Assembly: GCA_903954185.1 (NCBI GenBank) | Contig: CAJBMM010000005.1 | Coordinates: 1,768 to 65,767 of the forward strand | From: an uncultured Candidatus Berkelbacteria bacterium | GTDB lineage: Bacteria; Patescibacteriota; UBA1384; CAJBMM01 | Length of the DNA stretch: 64,000 nt | Reading direction: 5' to 3' | Part shown: piece after piece, positions 225 to 59,435 of the stretch | How positions within the stretch are numbered: the first letter of the stretch is position 1 | Layout of the letters: each line of letters starts with the position of its first letter | Translations under genes and position numbers: made by a program | The notes under the pieces: model-generated | Databases searched by the model: none | What the model was told of the DNA's origin: nothing | Seen by the model: only the letters and a program-made list of their open reading frames with translations

Positions 225-3218
225 CTAGACAGCTGTTTCCCTTAACACCTCGTCCACTGTGGTCATACCCTCTAGAGCCTTTAGCAAGCCGTCTTGCTTC
301 ATGGTTATCATACCCTCGATAATTGCTTGTTTCTGAATTTCGCTAGTTGCTGCCTTTTTAATTGCCAAATCTTCGATTGCATCACTCATTGACATAACCT
401 CATAAATTCCAATACGTCCTTTATACCCGTTTTGGCATCGCTCGCAACCCTTGCCATGATAAAACACCAACTCGGACTTTATTCTTGCTCTGTCTTTAGG
501 ATTATTTTCGGGAATTTTATTAAGTTCTTCTTGAATTTCGGCAATTACTGCCGGTGGAATTTGAGCAGGCTCTTTGCAACTTTGACAAACTCTACGCACC
601 AAACGTTGACCCATGATAGCATTTATCGATGAAGTGATAAGAAAAGGTTCTACTCCCATATTAATTAAGCGCGGCAACGCTCCGGGAGCATCATTTGTAT
701 GCAGGGTAGAAAGCACCAAATGTCCTGTTAAAGCAGCGTGTGTGGCCATATTAGCGGTTTCAGAATCGCGAATTTCTCCAACCATCACCACATTTGGATC
801 TTGCCGCAAAACAGAACGTAACCCCTCTGCAAAGGTAAAACCAATTTTTGGCTTAATTTGGGCCTGATTTACACCCGCTATCTCATACTCCACAGGATCT
901 TCTAGCGTAATAATATTAACAGTGGGTGTGCTTATACGATTTAAAATTGCATAAAGTGTTGTAGATTTTCCAGAACCAGTCGGTCCAGTAGAAAGTACAA
1001 TGCCATATGGACGTTTTATTCCCTCGATGATTATATCAAACGCGCGTCCAACTACGCCTAAATCTTCTAAAGACAAGATACCATGTGTTTTATCTAAAAT
1101 ACGAAGCACTATCTTTTCACCGTGAACCGTAGGCATAGAAGAAACACGTAAATCTACTGCCCTATCCTTAAACTTCACATCAAATCTGCCATCTTGAGGA
1201 ATGCGGGTTTCATCAATTTTTAATTTGGCTAATATTTTAATGCGGCTAACAATCGCGGCGTGCTGCTCTAATGGCATTCTTATAACATCTTGGAGCATTC
1301 CGTCTACTCTATATCGGATACGTACATCATTAAGCTCTGCCTCTATGTGCACATCAGATGCCCGCAATGTAATTGCGTAACTTACTATTGCGGCAACCAT
1401 CCGCGGAATAAAACCTTCAACGATAATTTTTTGAAGTTCTTCTACTGTTTGCACGTCTTTATTCAATAATGAACCGAGGTCGTCTTCTTCTACATTTGCC
1501 TGTGGAAGCGTTGGTGGAATAATTGGATTATTTTTATCTGATTGTATTGGAATATTGACTTTTGAGGCCTGTGCGATAGGCGCAGCATTAACGGGTGGAA
1601 TTGGCGTGGGCGGAATATTAACATTCTGAAAAACATTAAAGGTGCCCGAACCCAAACGCGCAGAAGCGGAATCGTCTTTCTCTATAGAATGTGGTGTTAC
1701 TGGCGCTGGCGCAGCAACTGGCGCTGGACTTTCAGATGCATACTGAGTTATTACAACATCATCTTCTTTTTTAACCTGGGCTTTAATTTCTGGTTCAATA
1801 TTCGCCTCGGAACGGTTTGCATGCGCAAGCCCAAGCGAAACCATCGCCTTATGAAAGCCAGACTCTGGTTTTATCGCCTTGGTCTTGATAGCTGATTCGT
1901 TTACAGAATCGGGTTTCTGAATAATCTGTTTGTTTTTTTCTGTTGGAGTTTTTACATTTTCATCATTAAATGGTATAGAGACTTTCTTTGGAACAATTTG
2001 AGGTGATGTAGGTACATTTTTTGGCGGAATCGGTAATGCAGAAACTGGCAATGAATTATGAACGCCTGCAGGAGCATGCACAACATTTGTTTCTGTTGGC
2101 TTGCCAGGTAAGTTATGTGGCATCGACATCGGCGCAGGCAATAGCCACTTTGCCACATTCGCATCTGGTAATTTTAACTTTTCTGTTTCTTCATCATATT
2201 TTGCGATCCACTTATCTAAAATGCCCGAATCGTGTTTTTCGATTATCAATAGGACATTATTATGTTCTTCAATAAAGTGCCAAATACGCTTATCTTCCTC
2301 GCGCTGGTCCCTATCGGTTGCAATGTAATATTTTGGCTTCTGGTTAGGCAATTTTTCTAACTTATATACAACAAATCGATATTTACTGGCAACAGCTTTA
2401 GGAATTTTTAGCATCGCGCTTCGATCTGGGTTTTCTGGCAAGTCCTGGATTCGCTTACCATCATATAGGCTTAGACCGTAATCTATATTGACACTGTCAA
2501 ATTTTTTAATTATAAACTTTATTTTATTATTATCACTAATAAATTTTATAGCTGATTTTACTTTTTCAGAATCAGGATCTTCCGCTGCTAACAAATAGCT
2601 TTCTCCAACCTGACCGTAAACTAACATACGATATTTTATAGCTATAGCGACAGGTATTTTTTGCAGTAACTTGGCATCAACAGTTAGCTTTTCACTCTCG
2701 TTTTTAACTTCTTTTGGCATTGCGGGCGATGAATATTCAGATTCGTTCGGATAAACACTAATCCAACGGTTAAATGAATCTGGCGAAGTAACTACAAGAG
2801 TAAATTGTAGTTTTTCTCTACCCTTAATTTCCGATAACACGCCACGCTTATTTTCTTTAATACGAGCAGGATTTGCCACCGCAACCGTAACTTTATTATT
2901 TTCTTTTTTACAAGCTATAATTTCGTACGAAACACATGCAGATTTAGGAATAATTGTCATTACCGCTAAATCTGGAGTAATTGATAGCTCGGTAAATGGT
3001 AAATTCAATACCTTAGCCATTGCAATATTTATAGCCAATCGATTTACTATATTATGAGACTCTAGATAAGTTGCTAAATCTTTAAGCTCTGGCCAATTGG
3101 TAATTTCATTCTTAATGCCCTGAAGCACTGTGTCATTAATAGAACCAGCCAAACGTAAAAAATCGAGCAAAGATGCTTTCTTTTCGGCTTCAGATTTAGT
3201 AAGCACAGATAAGGCCAT
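225..3218 (-). CDS. pilB: Type IV pilus / type II secretion assembly ATPase (GspE/PilB family), unusually long (997 aa), with repeated GspE-N-like N-terminal domains and a Pro-rich linker
   Basis: C-terminal half carries Walker A GPTGSGKSTT, the conserved Asp/His boxes and the CQSC...CERC tetracysteine motif typical of GspE/PilB. The N-terminal ~500 aa contains three segments resembling the GspE N-terminal domain. A Pro-rich stretch (PAPVAAPAPVTP...) links them to the ATPase. Confidence 0.85.
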   Translation of the reverse strand: MALSVLTKSEAEKKASLLDFLRLAGSINDTVLQGIKNEITNWPELKDLATYLESHNIVNRLAINIAMAKVLNLPFTELSITPDLAVMTIIPKSACVSYEIIACKKENNKVTVAVANPARIKENKRGVLSEIKGREKLQFTLVVTSPDSFNRWISVYPNESEYSSPAMPKEVKNESEKLTVDAKLLQKIPVAIAIKYRMLVYGQVGESYLLAAEDPDSEKVKSAIKFISDNNKIKFIIKKFDSVNIDYGLSLYDGKRIQDLPENPDRSAMLKIPKAVASKYRFVVYKLEKLPNQKPKYYIATDRDQREEDKRIWHFIEEHNNVLLIIEKHDSGILDKWIAKYDEETEKLKLPDANVAKWLLPAPMSMPHNLPGKPTETNVVHAPAGVHNSLPVSALPIPPKNVPTSPQIVPKKVSIPFNDENVKTPTEKNKQIIQKPDSVNESAIKTKAIKPESGFHKAMVSLGLAHANRSEANIEPEIKAQVKKEDDVVITQYASESPAPVAAPAPVTPHSIEKDDSASARLGSGTFNVFQNVNIPPTPIPPVNAAPIAQASKVNIPIQSDKNNPIIPPTLPQANVEEDDLGSLLNKDVQTVEELQKIIVEGFIPRMVAAIVSYAITLRASDVHIEAELNDVRIRYRVDGMLQDVIRMPLEQHAAIVSRIKILAKLKIDETRIPQDGRFDVKFKDRAVDLRVSSMPTVHGEKIVLRILDKTHGILSLEDLGVVGRAFDIIIEGIKRPYGIVLSTGPTGSGKSTTLYAILNRISTPTVNIITLEDPVEYEIAGVNQAQIKPKIGFTFAEGLRSVLRQDPNVVMVGEIRDSETANMATHAALTGHLVLSTLHTNDAPGALPRLINMGVEPFLITSSINAIMGQRLVRRVCQSCKEPAQIPPAVIAEIQEELNKIPENNPKDRARIKSELVFYHGKGCERCQNGYKGRIGIYEVMSMSDAIEDLAIKKAATSEIQKQAIIEGMITMKQDGLLKALEGMTTVDEVLRETAV

Positions 3219-22959: not shown

Positions 22960-23889
22960 ATGTCTTTATCCACATCACAGCTGCAAGCCAAGCAAGCTAC
23001 ATTAATGCAACACATGCCTATGCCCAAAGAGGTGTTAAAGCATTTAAACGACTGGTATAAAATTGAGCTTTCATACACTTCTTGCGCTATAGAGGGCAGT
23101 GCCCTATCGCGCGCCGATTGTGCCCTGGCTATCGAAAAGCAACTAGCCTCTGGGGGTAAAAAAATATCCGATCATTTGCAAGTTATCGATAATGCCAAGG
23201 CTTGGGAGGTGGTACGCGATTTGGGCGCAAAAAAATCTGATCACGAAATTGACGCATCGGTAATCTCCACAGTTTATCGCCTACTTTCATCGCAGCCGTT
23301 AGATAAAGGTAAGCTCAACAATGTTTTAGCAAGCAAAACGAGTAACGATTTAGAGGCAATCATTAATTGTCATTTTCAATATCTATCACAAAAACCTTTT
23401 CCTGAGCAAAACGGACAAATGGCTCGCCTACTCTTGAACCTCTCTTTAATGCAGGCCGGTTTTACACCAGCAGTGATAGAGACTAGGGTTAAACCCCGCT
23501 ATATTAAGGCAATAGCAAACTATGCCGCAAGTCCAGCGCAGTTGCAGCAAATTATTTACTACGCTATTGCAAAATCTTTAGATATTTTTATTAAAACAGC
23601 TGAGAATGGCGTGAGTTCGCTTTCGCATACAAGTAAACAACCTGTTAAAATTGTGGCTAAGCAAGGTTTGTTAAAAATTGGTGAGTTGGCGGCCGTGGCT
23701 GGCGAAACGGTGCCAACAATTAGATTTTGGACCAAAGAGGGATTACTTGCTGTTCAAGAGCTTTCTCGTGGTGGATATCAACTTTACGATCATTTTCAAA
23801 TTGCCAAAGCGCAACAAATTAGGGCGTTGCAAAACGAACAAAAGTTAAGCATTAAAGAACTAAAAGCCAAGTTAGCTGGTAGCTTGTAG
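22960..23889 (+). CDS. Fic-family protein with degenerate active-site motif fused to a C-terminal MerR-type HTH
   Basis: Fic N-terminal motif SCAIEGSALS. Core motif reads KPFPEQNGQMARLL in place of the canonical HPFxDGNGRxxRLL (His to Lys, Gly to Gln, Arg to Gln). C-terminus LKIGELAAVAGETVPTIRFWTKEGLL is a MerR HTH. Confidence 0.7.
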   Translation: MSLSTSQLQAKQATLMQHMPMPKEVLKHLNDWYKIELSYTSCAIEGSALSRADCALAIEKQLASGGKKISDHLQVIDNAKAWEVVRDLGAKKSDHEIDASVISTVYRLLSSQPLDKGKLNNVLASKTSNDLEAIINCHFQYLSQKPFPEQNGQMARLLLNLSLMQAGFTPAVIETRVKPRYIKAIANYAASPAQLQQIIYYAIAKSLDIFIKTAENGVSSLSHTSKQPVKIVAKQGLLKIGELAAVAGETVPTIRFWTKEGLLAVQELSRGGYQLYDHFQIAKAQQIRALQNEQKLSIKELKAKLAGSL

Positions 23890-23990
23890 CGAGTGTGTCG
23901 TAGGGGCATAACCCACGTGTCCGCCCAATTCATCAGTAGGAGGTTGTGCGATGAAGTTGTAGAGGTAATTTTTTGAATATATTATTTTTG

Positions 23991-24100
23991 CCAAGCTAAA
24001 GCTTGTTCTACGATTATTTGTAAAACAGACTTTAGTCTGGAACAAACCAAGCTAAAGCTTGTGCTACAAGACACCTTTCGTAGAGCACACTTTAGTGTGG
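23991..24100. repeat. dispersed repeat family B copy (ccaagctaaagcttgtNctac ... acagactttagtctgg ... cacactttagtgtgg)
   Basis: Matches 28600..28705, 26386..26565 and 10160..10370. Confidence 0.7.
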
Positions 24101-24441
24101 CTATTAACAAACTACAACTTGGATCCAGTGAGGTATTTGAGCTTGTGTATTCCAAATTCCAGATCTGCAGAGTATTTATCGTGTCATTCCTGCGAAGGCA
24201 GGAATCCAGTCTATCATAAATTTATTATGTAGATTCCTGCCTTCGCAGGAATGACAATGTGCAAAAATATTTAATTAGCAGTTCTATATTTTGCCACTTC
24301 CGTTACTTCTGCTACTTATTCTCTTTAGTCATTAGTCATTCGGATTTTTTGATTTCTGCCGTGCCGTCCGCTGTGCCATCCGTAGCTTTAGCGTAGGATT
24401 GGTAGCCTTGCGCGAAGGATCGGTAACTTTATTTACTTCTG

Positions 24442-24826: not shown

Positions 24827-25675
24827 CTATCTGGCTGTCCGTAACCTTCTTTCTCTATCTTTAGCATCGTCTAACATCTCTTTATACTCGTTATTTTGTG
24901 GCTCTAAAGACCATGCTTTAGAAAAATTGCGCACCGCTTTGCTATATTGTCTTAGCGATAGATAACACCTGCCAATATCAGCTTGCCATTCAGCATTCTT
25001 ATCATCAAAATTTGATGCATCTTCATAAAACTTTACGGCTTCGTTATAATTCTCGCGTAAGTAAGAGATGTGCCCTAAAGAATTTAAAATATATCCATTA
25101 CCTGGTAAATATTTTAGTGCTTGTAAAAAAGCTTCTTCAGAATCGTTTAGCGCCATATTAGGCTGCCCTGTAATTTGAGCAACTTCTTTATGCACGGGCG
25201 AAGTTGCGCGGCGTAAAAATATTTGACCCAGTTTATAATAGGCAACAGCGCATTTTGGCTCTTCTGCCGCAATTTGTAAATACAATTTTTCCGCAGTATC
25301 TAACTGGTGCATATCAAAATGCTTCCGCGCTTCTTCCAAAGGTTGTACAAGCTTCGGAAATTTAAAACCAATCTCCTCTAGATTATCTCCTGGTTCTGCA
25401 AATTCGTTTGGTCGCACTATCTTCGGAGGATCGTTAAAAGCAAAATCGTCATCTATTGTCTTCTGGGGCAATTTAATGCTTGCTATTTTAGGAATTGCAA
25501 ACTTAAATTTTGGAATTTTTAACCAATTTATCTTCATCTCATCTCCATTAGCTGTTTCTGGAAATCTTCTAATTATTATGATAAAAACAACCGCAGCTGC
25601 TACTAGTATGATAATTTCATATATTCCCATGATCCCTCTTTTTTGAAACAACATTATTTGGCAATTCAGCGCCAT
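24827..25675 (-). CDS. membrane-anchored TPR-repeat protein
   Basis: N-terminal TM IIILVAAAVVFIIII, then TPR-like helices (AVAYYKLGQIF, AEWQADIGRCYLSLRQYSKAV). Probable start is Met-16 at about 25630. Confidence 0.6.
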   Translation of the reverse strand: MALNCQIMLFQKRGIMGIYEIIILVAAAVVFIIIIRRFPETANGDEMKINWLKIPKFKFAIPKIASIKLPQKTIDDDFAFNDPPKIVRPNEFAEPGDNLEEIGFKFPKLVQPLEEARKHFDMHQLDTAEKLYLQIAAEEPKCAVAYYKLGQIFLRRATSPVHKEVAQITGQPNMALNDSEEAFLQALKYLPGNGYILNSLGHISYLRENYNEAVKFYEDASNFDDKNAEWQADIGRCYLSLRQYSKAVRNFSKAWSLEPQNNEYKEMLDDAKDRERRLRTAR

Positions 25676-26312
25676 CTATTAAGTGAAGATAAGTAACTTC
25701 TAGCATTGCCTGCGCATTAATAGCGGTTGAGCTTAACATATTTCTCGCATCAATAATCCATCGCACTGGTTGAATATTTTTTCTGTCTATCAACTCACGC
25801 GTCCACTGATCTAGTAAGATGCCAGACTGGTTGCTTTCAACTATTTTTCCAATCTTCAAGCTCACTGTAGCAAAATCCTGAGCCTTATCAAGTGGTAATA
25901 AAATTTCGATAATATCTGCAACTTTTCTATTGCTCCATTCGCTGCAGCGAGAGCGTATTGTTGGTAGTATTTGCTTGGTTTTTGCAAACAACAATAGCCG
26001 CGTGCATTTTGGCACCTCTTCTAGTATTTTTAGCATTGCATTAGCCGCTGAATCACTACTATTATCAATAAATTTTATCACCGAAAGCCTAACCTTACCT
26101 TGCGACGGAAGGTGACGCGATATTTCTTCTATTTGCCTCGATTCTTCTATACTCAAAACACTCTCCTGGCCGACTTCTGCATAATCAAATTTAGATACAG
26201 CAAATTCAGTTATAGCTTGATTAATAATTTCTTCCCATGTGTTTTCTGGAGCAATAATTAAAAACGATTGTCCGGTGTGCCAAAATGTGTTAGGTGGGGT
26301 GTTGGATTTCAT
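25617..26312 (-). CDS. holB: DNA polymerase III delta-prime-like clamp-loader subunit lacking a canonical P-loop
   Basis: SDSAANAMLKILEEVPKCTRLLLFAKTKQILPTIRSRC matches the delta-prime (HolB) sensor region ...NALLKTLEEPP...TI.SRCQ. No Walker A was seen, as is common in delta-prime. Confidence 0.5.
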   Translation of the reverse strand: MKSNTPPNTFWHTGQSFLIIAPENTWEEIINQAITEFAVSKFDYAEVGQESVLSIEESRQIEEISRHLPSQGKVRLSVIKFIDNSSDSAANAMLKILEEVPKCTRLLLFAKTKQILPTIRSRCSEWSNRKVADIIEILLPLDKAQDFATVSLKIGKIVESNQSGILLDQWTRELIDRKNIQPVRWIIDARNMLSSTAINAQAMLEVTYLHLIDGAELPNNVVSKKRDHGNI

Positions 26313-59287: not shown

Positions 59288-59435
59288 TGTTATTCCTGCG
59301 CATGCAGGAATCTACATAATAAATCGGATAACTGGATTTCTGCCCATTCGACAAGCTCAGGGTCTCTAGTGCAATCGATTGACCTTCGCCCGTCTCGTTC
59401 GAGGCGAACAGCCGAGGTGGACAGGAATGACAGTG
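59288..59435. repeat. dispersed palindromic repeat family A, long composite copy
   Basis: attcctgcgcatgcaggaatctacataataaat ... cattcgacaagctcagggtct ... gacaggaatgaca. Same modules as 19249..19325 and 29667..29745. Confidence 0.75.

Follow-up and report, generated by a model that had tools for sequence, protein, structure and literature searches.

We focused on a plus-strand gene (positions 22960 to 23889) of a 64,000-nucleotide stretch, here called the window, from contig CAJBMM010000005.1 of an uncultured Candidatus Berkelbacteria bacterium. Its product, referred to as the query, is a fusion of a degenerate Fic domain with a C-terminal MerR-type DNA-binding domain. Our best explanation, to which we give a probability of about 0.68, is that it is a non-enzymatic transcription regulator descended from class II Fic AMP-transferases whose C-terminal MerR domain binds a palindrome in their own promoter. 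An earlier sequence-only reading of the window had already suspected a pseudo-enzyme repurposed as a transcription regulator, a proposal that now finds support in motif and family alignments, structure prediction, purifying selection on the gene, and a palindrome shared by the family. The protein is no assembly artifact, since the identical sequence occurs on 13 contigs from several metagenome samples. NCBI/JGI name the identical protein "Fic family protein," a label that is misleading for degenerate Fic-MerR proteins because it wrongly implies enzymatic activity.

The gene and its parts are laid out as follows, with the basis of each assignment in parentheses (aa, amino acids; HTH, helix-turn-helix; pLDDT, predicted local distance difference test; dN, nonsynonymous divergence).

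22960..23889, +, whole gene, fusion of a pseudo-Fic domain and a MerR DNA-binding domain, 309 aa plus stop codon (open reading frame list)
22960..23607, +, class II Fic-fold domain covering aa 1-216, made of helices only and degenerate in its catalytic motif (phmmer, AlphaFold, Foldseek)
23080..23097, +, retained inhibitory-helix motif S41-C-A-I-E45-G46 (aligned on TVAIEG of FIC-1)
23311..23316, +, flap-deletion junction K118/L119, ∼26 residues gone (family alignment and model)
23392..23427, +, degenerate Fic signature K145-PFPEQNGQMA-R156, compared with HPFxDGNGRxxR (PDB and family alignments)
23608..23670, +, linker, aa 217-237, partly disordered in the model (pLDDT below 50 at residues 225-233) and with the highest dN of all segments
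23671..23886, +, MerR-type winged HTH, limited to the DNA-binding helices a1-a4 (PF13411, C-terminal profile, predicted secondary structure)

Loss of catalytic features in a conserved Fic fold

The two Fic motifs named in the sequence-only reading, SCAIEGSALS near the N terminus and the degenerate KPFPEQNGQ, both align where they were expected. In phmmer searches against PDB sequences (E = 2e-10 for FICD/FIC-1), KPFPEQNGQMARLLLNL was placed on HPFTDGNGRTARLLLNL of FICD/FIC-1 (query aa 126-202), and SCAIEGSALS was placed on the inhibitory helix TVAIEGNTLS of the same proteins (query aa 29-120). The counterpart of the catalytic motif HPFxDGNGRxxR in the query is KPFPEQNGQMAR. Beyond the His-to-Lys replacement noticed earlier (K145), the first Gly of GNG and the first Arg have both been replaced by Gln (Q150 and Q153), and the Pro, Phe, Glu, Asn, second Gly, and last Arg (R156) are kept. 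The query therefore lacks the Fic signature HxFx(D/E)GN(G/K)RxxR with its catalytic His. No second HxFx[DE]GN-like site occurs anywhere in the 309-aa protein, which leaves the assigned motif without a competitor bearing an intact His. The hallmark of class II Fic proteins, (S/T)xxxE(G/N) with a partner Arg at the end of the motif, is present as S41-CAI-E45-G46 and R156, aligned with FIC-1/FICD. The Pfam Fic model (PF02661), to which the earlier reading had proposed a profile alignment, gave the query 16.5 bits, under its gathering cutoff of 24 bits.

An AlphaFold model built from a 60-sequence family alignment (pLDDT, 91.8) is all-helical up to residue 221, followed by a disordered linker (residues 225-233) and a winged HTH. 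The top Foldseek matches in the PDB were BT_2513 (3cuc), FICD, and CdFic (probability of 1.00 each), with a target-normalized TM-score of up to 0.71-0.74, showing that the helical core of the Fic fold is present. These proteins, FICD being also known as HYPE, are the best structure and sequence matches of query aa 1-216 and share its inhibitory helix and helix topology; unlike the query, they have the canonical HPFxDGNGR and a flap, and they have no MerR domain. The earlier statement that the fold is intact accordingly holds for the class II Fic fold but not for the flap, the beta-hairpin by which Fic enzymes dock the target segment. In the family alignment, a deletion of ∼26 residues between K118 and L119 takes this hairpin out, and the model has no strand in the flap region ahead of the motif. 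The flap consensus RxVxVRIAGSxxxxPNPxKVPxLM is missing from the whole query clade, which consists of the query and its homologues P0001, P0002, and P0003 (91%, 64%, and 62% identity, respectively): the insert length is 0 in this clade versus 26 in 59 of the 67 fused sequences with a canonical motif. Within the family alignment, complete loss of the flap is confined to the query branch.

The altered motif, KPFxxQNGQMAR, is identical at the replaced positions in all four lineages of the query clade. Judged by these losses, the Fic domain of the query is most likely catalytically dead and without AMP-transferase activity. It is very improbable that the protein is still an enzyme with altered chemistry, in which Lys145 or another residue stands in for the His, by analogy with other Fic/Doc proteins of non-canonical type. 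Conservation of the new motif would fit this idea, and non-canonical Fic motifs support phosphorylation by Doc and phosphocholination by AnkX (cited in PMC8401265 and PMC4454073), but the alternative activity of Doc still needs the motif His (PMC4454073). The query has lost four features at once, namely, the His, the Gly of the anion hole, the first Arg, and the complete flap, and its Pfam Fic score falls below threshold. AnkX, like Doc, relies on the motif His for its activity.

To place these losses in the family, we collected 65 homologues with a word-indexed search. Nearly all are Fic-MerR fusions of ∼327 aa, and most have a perfect HPFxDGNGRxxR and TSNAIEGN. The fusion family is sizeable and mostly carries Patescibacteria labels; among all members collected, the motif is canonical in about two-thirds. 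An exhaustive profile search of 1.84 billion representatives yielded 42,771 Fic-like proteins, and the best 150 representatives at 50% identity, among them 42 MerR fusions and 105 close Fic-only relatives, were used to compare motifs. Non-canonical motifs were found in 26 of the 42 fusions versus 5 of the 105 Fic-only proteins (Fisher P = 2.7e-13), a comparison in which clustering at 50% identity over-represents fast-evolving lineages. In a neighbor-joining tree computed without the motif columns, all degenerate fusions fall into one clade (two Fitch changes, one of which is a trivial HPY variant), with the query branch as its most eroded member. As the simplest history suggested by this tree, we favor a single ancient loosening of the constraint on catalysis, after which the motifs eroded along separate paths. 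A scenario of many independent motif losses, considered in view of the variety of residues found in place of His (K, Q, S, R, Y, N, M, C, and E), was dropped because the tree gives a single clade.

The erosion is uneven along the motif. Among fused sequences with both motifs aligned (58 canonical and 33 degenerate), the degenerate ones have kept the Pro (85%), Phe (94%), Asn (79%), Ala (85%), and last Arg (73%), and the inhibitory Glu is retained in 79% of them versus 100% of the canonical fusions. The His (12% kept), the first Gly (15%), and the first Arg (30%) have mostly been lost. Fold positions are thus kept and catalytic or nucleotide-binding ones lost, the pattern expected for a structural scaffold. 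The residues that replace them differ within the clade: at the positions of K145, Q150, and Q153, other degenerate members have quite different residues from those of the query clade.

A MerR-type DNA-binding domain and a family-wide operator

The C-terminal 70 residues, described as a MerR HTH in the sequence-only reading, match MerR_1 (PF13411) at aa 239-306 with 52.7 bits (cutoff, 21.6; E = 4.6e-14) and PF00376 with 28.7 bits (cutoff, 28.2). A profile of the C-terminal regions of the family matches residues 1-67 of CadR/MerR/ZntR-type structures (E = 3e-14), which identifies aa 238-309 as a MerR-type winged HTH. The protein stops after helix a4 and has neither the a5 coiled-coil dimerization helix nor a C-terminal effector-binding region. 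It thereby departs from CadR, ZntR, MerR, and CueR, whose a1-a4 DNA-binding domain aligns with the query C terminus but is N-terminal, and which have the a5 coiled coil and a metal-binding loop; the query also scores far under the cutoffs of the NCBIfam equivalogs ZntR, CadR, MerR, and CueR. MerR-type DNA-binding domains without a coiled coil are familiar from CarH/CarA and BldC, which oligomerize via a B12-binding domain (CarH) or by cooperative head-to-tail binding (BldC), but the partner domains are unrelated and the DNA-binding domain of CarH is N-terminal. The recognition-helix region of the query, GETVPTIRFWTKEGLL, equals the family consensus without change, and for this reason its DNA specificity is probably the same as that of the family.

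A candidate for the bound sequence was found at the family loci. The dyad AAGTATAA-N9-TTATACTT is present with 0 to 4 mismatches in nine independent loci other than that of the query. Its fuller form reads AAGTA-TA-AAGTA-N-TACTT-TA-TACTT, and the family consensus is a 25-bp palindrome, AAGTATAAAGTA-N-TACTTTATACTT. It was first recognized by eye, an exact-match palindrome script having missed it, and was then confirmed by mismatch scans and position weight matrix (PWM) scans. Only two other matches with at most three mismatches occur in the ∼190 kb of sequence examined. The nine dyads are as follows.

L007:5968-5992, locus with an intact protein
L008:5952-5976, locus with an intact protein
L010:4754-4778, locus with an intact protein
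L013:632-656, locus with an intact protein
L014:436-460, locus with an intact protein
L015:2946-2970, locus with an intact protein
L012:5970-5994, locus with a degenerate protein
L090:2499-2523, locus with a degenerate protein
L091:4971-4995, locus with a degenerate protein

In all nine loci, the dyad ends 5 to 30 nt before the ATG and spans the core promoter, its left arm abutting the −35 box (TTGACA or TTGCAA) and its right arm including the −10 box (TATACT). The −10 box lies only 5 to 12 nt from the ATG in most of these loci, so the mRNAs are apparently leaderless. Because the palindrome lies across the members' own −35/−10 promoter, it indicates that family proteins autoregulate via the fused DNA-binding domain, and its conservation in the wider family argues that the MerR domain is a working DNA-binding module. 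MerR operators also lie between −35 and −10, but activation by DNA distortion of the MerR type depends on overlong spacers of 19 to 20 nt. The family operators cover the spacer and the −10 box, and the spacer measures 17 to 18 nt in six of the nine loci (manual count). With spacers that are optimal rather than overlong, repression by occlusion appears more likely in this family than MerR-style activation.

This arrangement resembles that of CccR (YPK_0951) from Yersinia pseudotuberculosis, an autorepressor and FtsZ AMPylase whose dimer binds a palindrome over its own −35/−10 boxes (PMC9755527). Like the query, CccR starts with a class II Fic domain whose inhibitory helix (SxxxEG) is part of the same molecule, and it ends with a DNA-binding HTH; its promoter palindrome has an equivalent in the Fic-MerR family, and in its logic the query resembles CccR. 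The two are related in sequence only through the general Fic fold. CccR has the canonical motif, with a His192 needed for toxicity, and an HTH of another type (∼100 aa), and the arms of its operator, 10 bp each, are 26 bp apart. In the query, the DNA-binding domain is of the MerR type, the catalytic His and the flap are both missing, and the gene's own promoter shows no clear operator.

The region upstream of the query gene differs from that of most of the family, as the following features illustrate.

22950..22955, +, Shine-Dalgarno sequence AAGGAG, 4 nt before the ATG
22864..22875, +, TACTTAGTACTT, similar to the right half (TACTT-TA-TACTT) of the operator and lacking a matching left half, read by eye against operator instances
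22644..22672, +, weak candidate distal promoter TTGCAC-17 nt-TAGTAT with an operator vestige, ∼290 nt upstream of the ATG
22542..22637, +, 35-nt inverted repeat, 89% complementary, with nested hairpins, between the IS30 element and the candidate promoter, shared with the P0001 locus

The AAGGAG sequence is invariant in the query, P0001, and P0002 loci, whereas most other family members look leaderless. The vestige at 22644..22672, AAGTATCACGT, is identical to the left half and center of the P0053 operator. If this distal promoter is in use, transcription would be expected to start near 22679. The best PWM matches of three query-clade loci all lie upstream of the gene (111 to 291 nt) and have GCA(C/T)AAAGTAT(C/T)ACGT(A/T)A in common. 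Of the sites homologous to that of the window, the one at L005:185 scores 10.5, above all 100 shuffles, and the one at L004:1131 scores 14.4, in the extreme tail of the shuffles (maximum, 15.1). Just upstream of the candidate promoter, the inverted repeat ends in a terminator-like stem with a T-run (22621-22637), and this hairpin may insulate the Fic-MerR gene from IS30 read-through. A further operator candidate, AGATTGCTTCG-N5-CTCGCAATGAC with a possible TTGCTT/TATAAT promoter (22786-22821), was set aside because it is a dispersed repeat that only the closest strain has in common with the query.

If the family operator is what it appears to be, it is a concrete, directly testable predicted binding site for the whole Fic-MerR family, and the palindrome looks usable as a regulon motif for Patescibacteria. 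These bacteria have small genomes and are thought to encode few regulators, so a conserved regulator with a predictable operator would be useful for understanding their gene control.

Constraint on the dead Fic domain and its likely role

The dead Fic domain is under strong purifying selection. By the Nei-Gojobori method, comparing the query with P0001 gave an overall ratio of nonsynonymous to synonymous substitution rates (dN/dS) of 0.047. The segments have ratios of 0.067 (N-terminal part), 0.026 (Fic core), and 0.046 (MerR domain), and synonymous sites are almost saturated. For P0002 versus P0003, the ratio is 0.066. Four lineages, the most divergent at 62% identity, all preserve an uninterrupted frame. 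At the P0002 locus (64% identical), the gene has the same neighbors as in the window, namely, holB (delta′) and the genes for a tetratricopeptide repeat (TPR) protein, a zinc-finger protein of the treble-clef type, and an M50 protease; this block is inverted relative to the query. In a near-identical strain, there is no IS30 element upstream of the Fic-MerR gene. This shows that the gene is vertically inherited and constrained, and that IS30 and small hairpin repeats were inserted into its upstream region.

These observations bear on the suggestion that we are looking at a decaying relic, a former enzyme gene becoming a pseudogene amid insertions. The loss of the catalytic motif and flap, the IS30 element and dense repeats upstream, and the lack of a family operator at the start codon would all be consistent with decay. 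However, a dN/dS of ∼0.05 with nearly saturated synonymous sites effectively refutes it, and the intact frame in four lineages, the confident model, the syntenic position, and the strong Shine-Dalgarno sequence speak against it as well, leaving this explanation with a practically negligible probability. Synteny in a 64%-identical relative together with purifying selection also shows that the gene is not accessory cargo. The sequence-only reading had placed it in a repeat-dense accessory stretch between an IS30-family element and a zinc-ribbon gene; the IS30 element, the zinc-finger gene, and repeats on both sides are indeed there, but the term accessory does not fit.

Why a dead enzyme domain is kept so strictly is probably explained by its partner. 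Since the MerR module lacks a coiled coil and the family operator is a dyad, the Fic domain most likely serves as a dimerization scaffold. According to the regulator model that we prefer, the ancestor would have been a class II Fic AMP-transferase with a C-terminal MerR domain that bound a palindrome across its own promoter. In the query lineage, the catalytic His has disappeared along with two residues for nucleotide binding and all of the flap that docks the target. Still in place are the positions that stabilize the fold, namely, Pro-Phe, Asn, the Glu of the inhibitory helix, and the final Arg of the motif. The dead Fic domain would have been retained to dimerize and position two DNA-binding domains on one dyad, possibly also offering a surface for a protein or ligand. 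The domain identities, the lost catalytic features, the purifying selection, and the family-wide operator come directly from the data; DNA binding by the query protein itself, dimerization through its Fic domain, repression as its mode of action, and its targets are what we infer.

Several observations weigh against this interpretation. Neither mismatch nor PWM scans found the family dyad by the start codon in the query clade. The upstream site at 22644-22668 is the joint-top PWM match of the window, but with a score of 4.6 it does not rise above shuffled sequences (mean of shuffle maxima, 9.1). When the upstream regions of the query and P0002 were compared for 20-mer footprints, the result was not significant, blocks of 16/20 arising in ∼25% of shuffles. 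The lone two-mismatch dyad match elsewhere in the 64-kb window (47402) is no better than chance, and the scan covered these 64 kb, beyond which the real targets may lie. The grouping of the degenerate fusions into a single clade may be inflated by long-branch attraction in the neighbor-joining tree. Finally, the conservation of KPFxxQNGQ could point to a new ligand or activity instead of a role in structure alone.

That last point is the starting point for a one-component sensor, modeled by analogy on the effector domains of MerR or CarH-type regulators, in which the remodeled Fic pocket binds a small molecule, a nucleotide, or a modified protein and allosterically switches DNA binding by the MerR domain. 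Such a sensor would explain why K145, Q150, and Q153 are conserved rather than drifting across homologues of 62 to 91% identity and why selection on the Fic core is so strong (dN/dS, 0.026), and the layout of a DNA-binding domain and one globular domain joined by a flexible linker would suit it. A sensor domain had also been named as an alternative in the sequence-only reading; we nevertheless consider it unlikely. A Gln at the first Gly of the anion hole and the loss of the first Arg speak against triphosphate binding (compare Bep8, PMC8401265), the loss of the flap opens the pocket, and no ligand-related neighbor genes are conserved in the loci compared. Nor is a common ligand site evident, as the other degenerate-clade members differ at these positions.

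Alternatively, the dead Fic protein could be a regulatory partner or decoy that heterodimerizes with an active class II Fic toxin or defense protein encoded elsewhere in the genome, or competes with it for a target or operator, in the manner of an antitoxin or immunity protein. Its Fic part is homologous to the candidate phage-defense family PDC-S04 of PADLOC (E = 6e-18) and weakly to SoFic (E = 0.008), the phylum is rich in active relatives of both the Fic-MerR and the Fic-only kind, and class II Fic proteins dimerize, with dimerization controlling activity (PMC10628234). Against this stand the absence of a second Fic or MerR gene from the 64-kb window (hmmsearch of all open reading frames), the lack of a Fic partner in any degenerate-clade neighborhood examined, and a position in synteny with housekeeping genes rather than within a defense island, which together make this alternative improbable.

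Relative to known systems, parts of the proposed regulator are familiar. Class II Fic domains with a C-terminal HTH have been described in CccR, itself an autorepressor, as well as in CbFic2 from Coxiella burnetii and SoFic from Shewanella oneidensis (3eqx), which share the Fic-then-HTH order of the query. Unlike the query, CbFic2 and SoFic have (de)AMPylase activity and a canonical motif, and their winged HTH is DeoR-like. SoFic structures were recovered by Foldseek, but full-length superposition was poor (root mean square deviation of 11 to 12 Å) because the C-terminal domains differ. For CbFic2, DNA binding is coupled to dimerization (PMC10628234). Fic pseudo-enzymes are likewise known. The FIC domains of the Bartonella BepC/Bep8 type keep the fold, have a non-canonical signature and no detectable enzyme activity, and act as a binding scaffold (PMC8401265). 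These Beps differ from the query in being class I (FicTA-derived), secreted, host-targeting effectors with BID domains that keep the flap and do not bind DNA.

Our literature searches found no paper on a Fic-MerR fusion. What is new here is the reversed domain order, with a MerR-type DNA-binding domain that has no coiled coil; an entire clade without catalysis in which both domains are under purifying selection and the query branch is also flapless; and a defined family operator. Class II Fic proteins make up ∼80% of all Fic proteins, with functions that are almost wholly obscure (PMC9755527), and studies of CccR and CbFic2 suggest that those bearing an HTH couple DNA binding to enzyme control (PMC9755527, PMC10628234). 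The degenerate clade provides a natural separation-of-function experiment on this point: a large clade has dropped catalysis, yet the Fic fold and the DNA-binding domain are still under strong selection, which argues that DNA binding and regulation by Fic-HTH proteins are of value independently of catalysis. A bolder idea, to which we assign only a small chance, is that the degenerate Fic-MerR clade is an unrecognized class of one-component transcription factors in Patescibacteria, with the Fic fold now an effector and oligomerization module and the query pocket binding a new ligand or partner. If so, the partner in the query branch could possibly be the ancestral AMPylation target or an AMPylated protein that switches DNA binding, and this would be the first Fic-derived "reader" or sensor domain controlling transcription.

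Neighboring genes, repeats, and other family loci

The gene lies among housekeeping genes (holB, the M50 protease, and tRNAs), and an Rfam scan of the 18-25 kb part of the window returned only tRNAs. For transketolase, a housekeeping protein also encoded in the window, the closest named relatives are Patescibacteria (Microgenomates, Levybacteria, Curtissbacteria, and Roizmanbacteria) with no more than 49% identity, which places the host as a deep-branching lineage of the candidate phyla radiation. The region also has a mobile element.

21277-22367, gene for an IS30-family transposase (NF033563, 211 bits), located upstream of the Fic-MerR gene; inverted repeats of 18 nt (21277-21294 and 22342-22359)

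In the near-identical strain, which lacks IS30, a divergent TrmB-like gene is located 268 nt upstream of the Fic-MerR gene. The treble-clef zinc-finger gene lies downstream of the Fic-MerR gene, which is flanked by repeats on both sides.

No conserved partner gene emerged from the family neighborhoods compared; adjacency to TPR-protein and clamp-loader genes is recurrent but not universal. Clamp-loader genes adjoin Fic-MerR genes in two distant lineages (window 25617-26312, L004:2355-3050, and L008:6962-8035): at the loci of the query and P0002, the gene is holB (delta′), and for P0014 it is holA (delta), which overlaps the 3′ end of the Fic-MerR gene. Such adjacency may be a coincidence or a regulatory link. 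A TPR-repeat gene divergently adjoins the genes for the degenerate proteins P0060 and P0062 (L012:3797-5893 and L091:2805-4895), and a smaller TPR protein is encoded two genes from the Fic-MerR gene at the query (24827-25675) and P0002 loci. In eukaryotic FICD, TPR motifs are fused to the Fic domain.

Small hairpin repeats are dense in the region 19200-24300 (for example, at 20603-20641, 22719-22735, and 24182-24257) and also occur at 59308-59320. The 13-mer ATTATGTAGATTC is present in six copies in the window versus 0.14 expected; a GC-rich hairpin comes after each of the copies inspected, and at 24182-24256 its 25-nt arms are perfect. The rejected operator candidate AGATTGCTTCG-N5-CTCGCAATGAC has three copies in the window versus 0 expected. 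These small repeats look like repetitive extragenic palindromic sequences or miniature inverted-repeat transposable elements, and the hairpin cassette varies between strains (window versus L005).

The contig scan yielded at least three or four full-length Fic-MerR loci, whose metagenome-assembled genome (MAG) labels are inconsistent (Acidobacteriota, Gammaproteobacteria, and "Rickettsia typhi"). L013 (MAG labeled Acidobacteriota; GC content, 0.51) and L014 (Gammaproteobacteria; GC content, 0.47) have intact full-length Fic-MerR genes with the operator, so either the family reaches beyond Patescibacteria or these contigs were mis-binned. At L015:3001-4013, in a MAG labeled "Rickettsia typhi" (GC content, 0.37), the Fic-MerR frame ends after 220 aa and tblastn matches run on to residue 305; either a frameshift, a pseudogene, or an assembly error accounts for the truncation, and the name given to the MAG is not a plausible one.

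Elsewhere in the window, a patch at 19757-20519 has a GC content of ∼0.45 versus 0.38 and long overlapping open reading frames on both strands, with no Pfam or Rfam match. An open reading frame on the minus strand (225-3218, 997 aa) encodes a PilB/GspE-type ATPase, with the ATPase region starting at about residue 575 after a long uncharacterized N-terminal extension.

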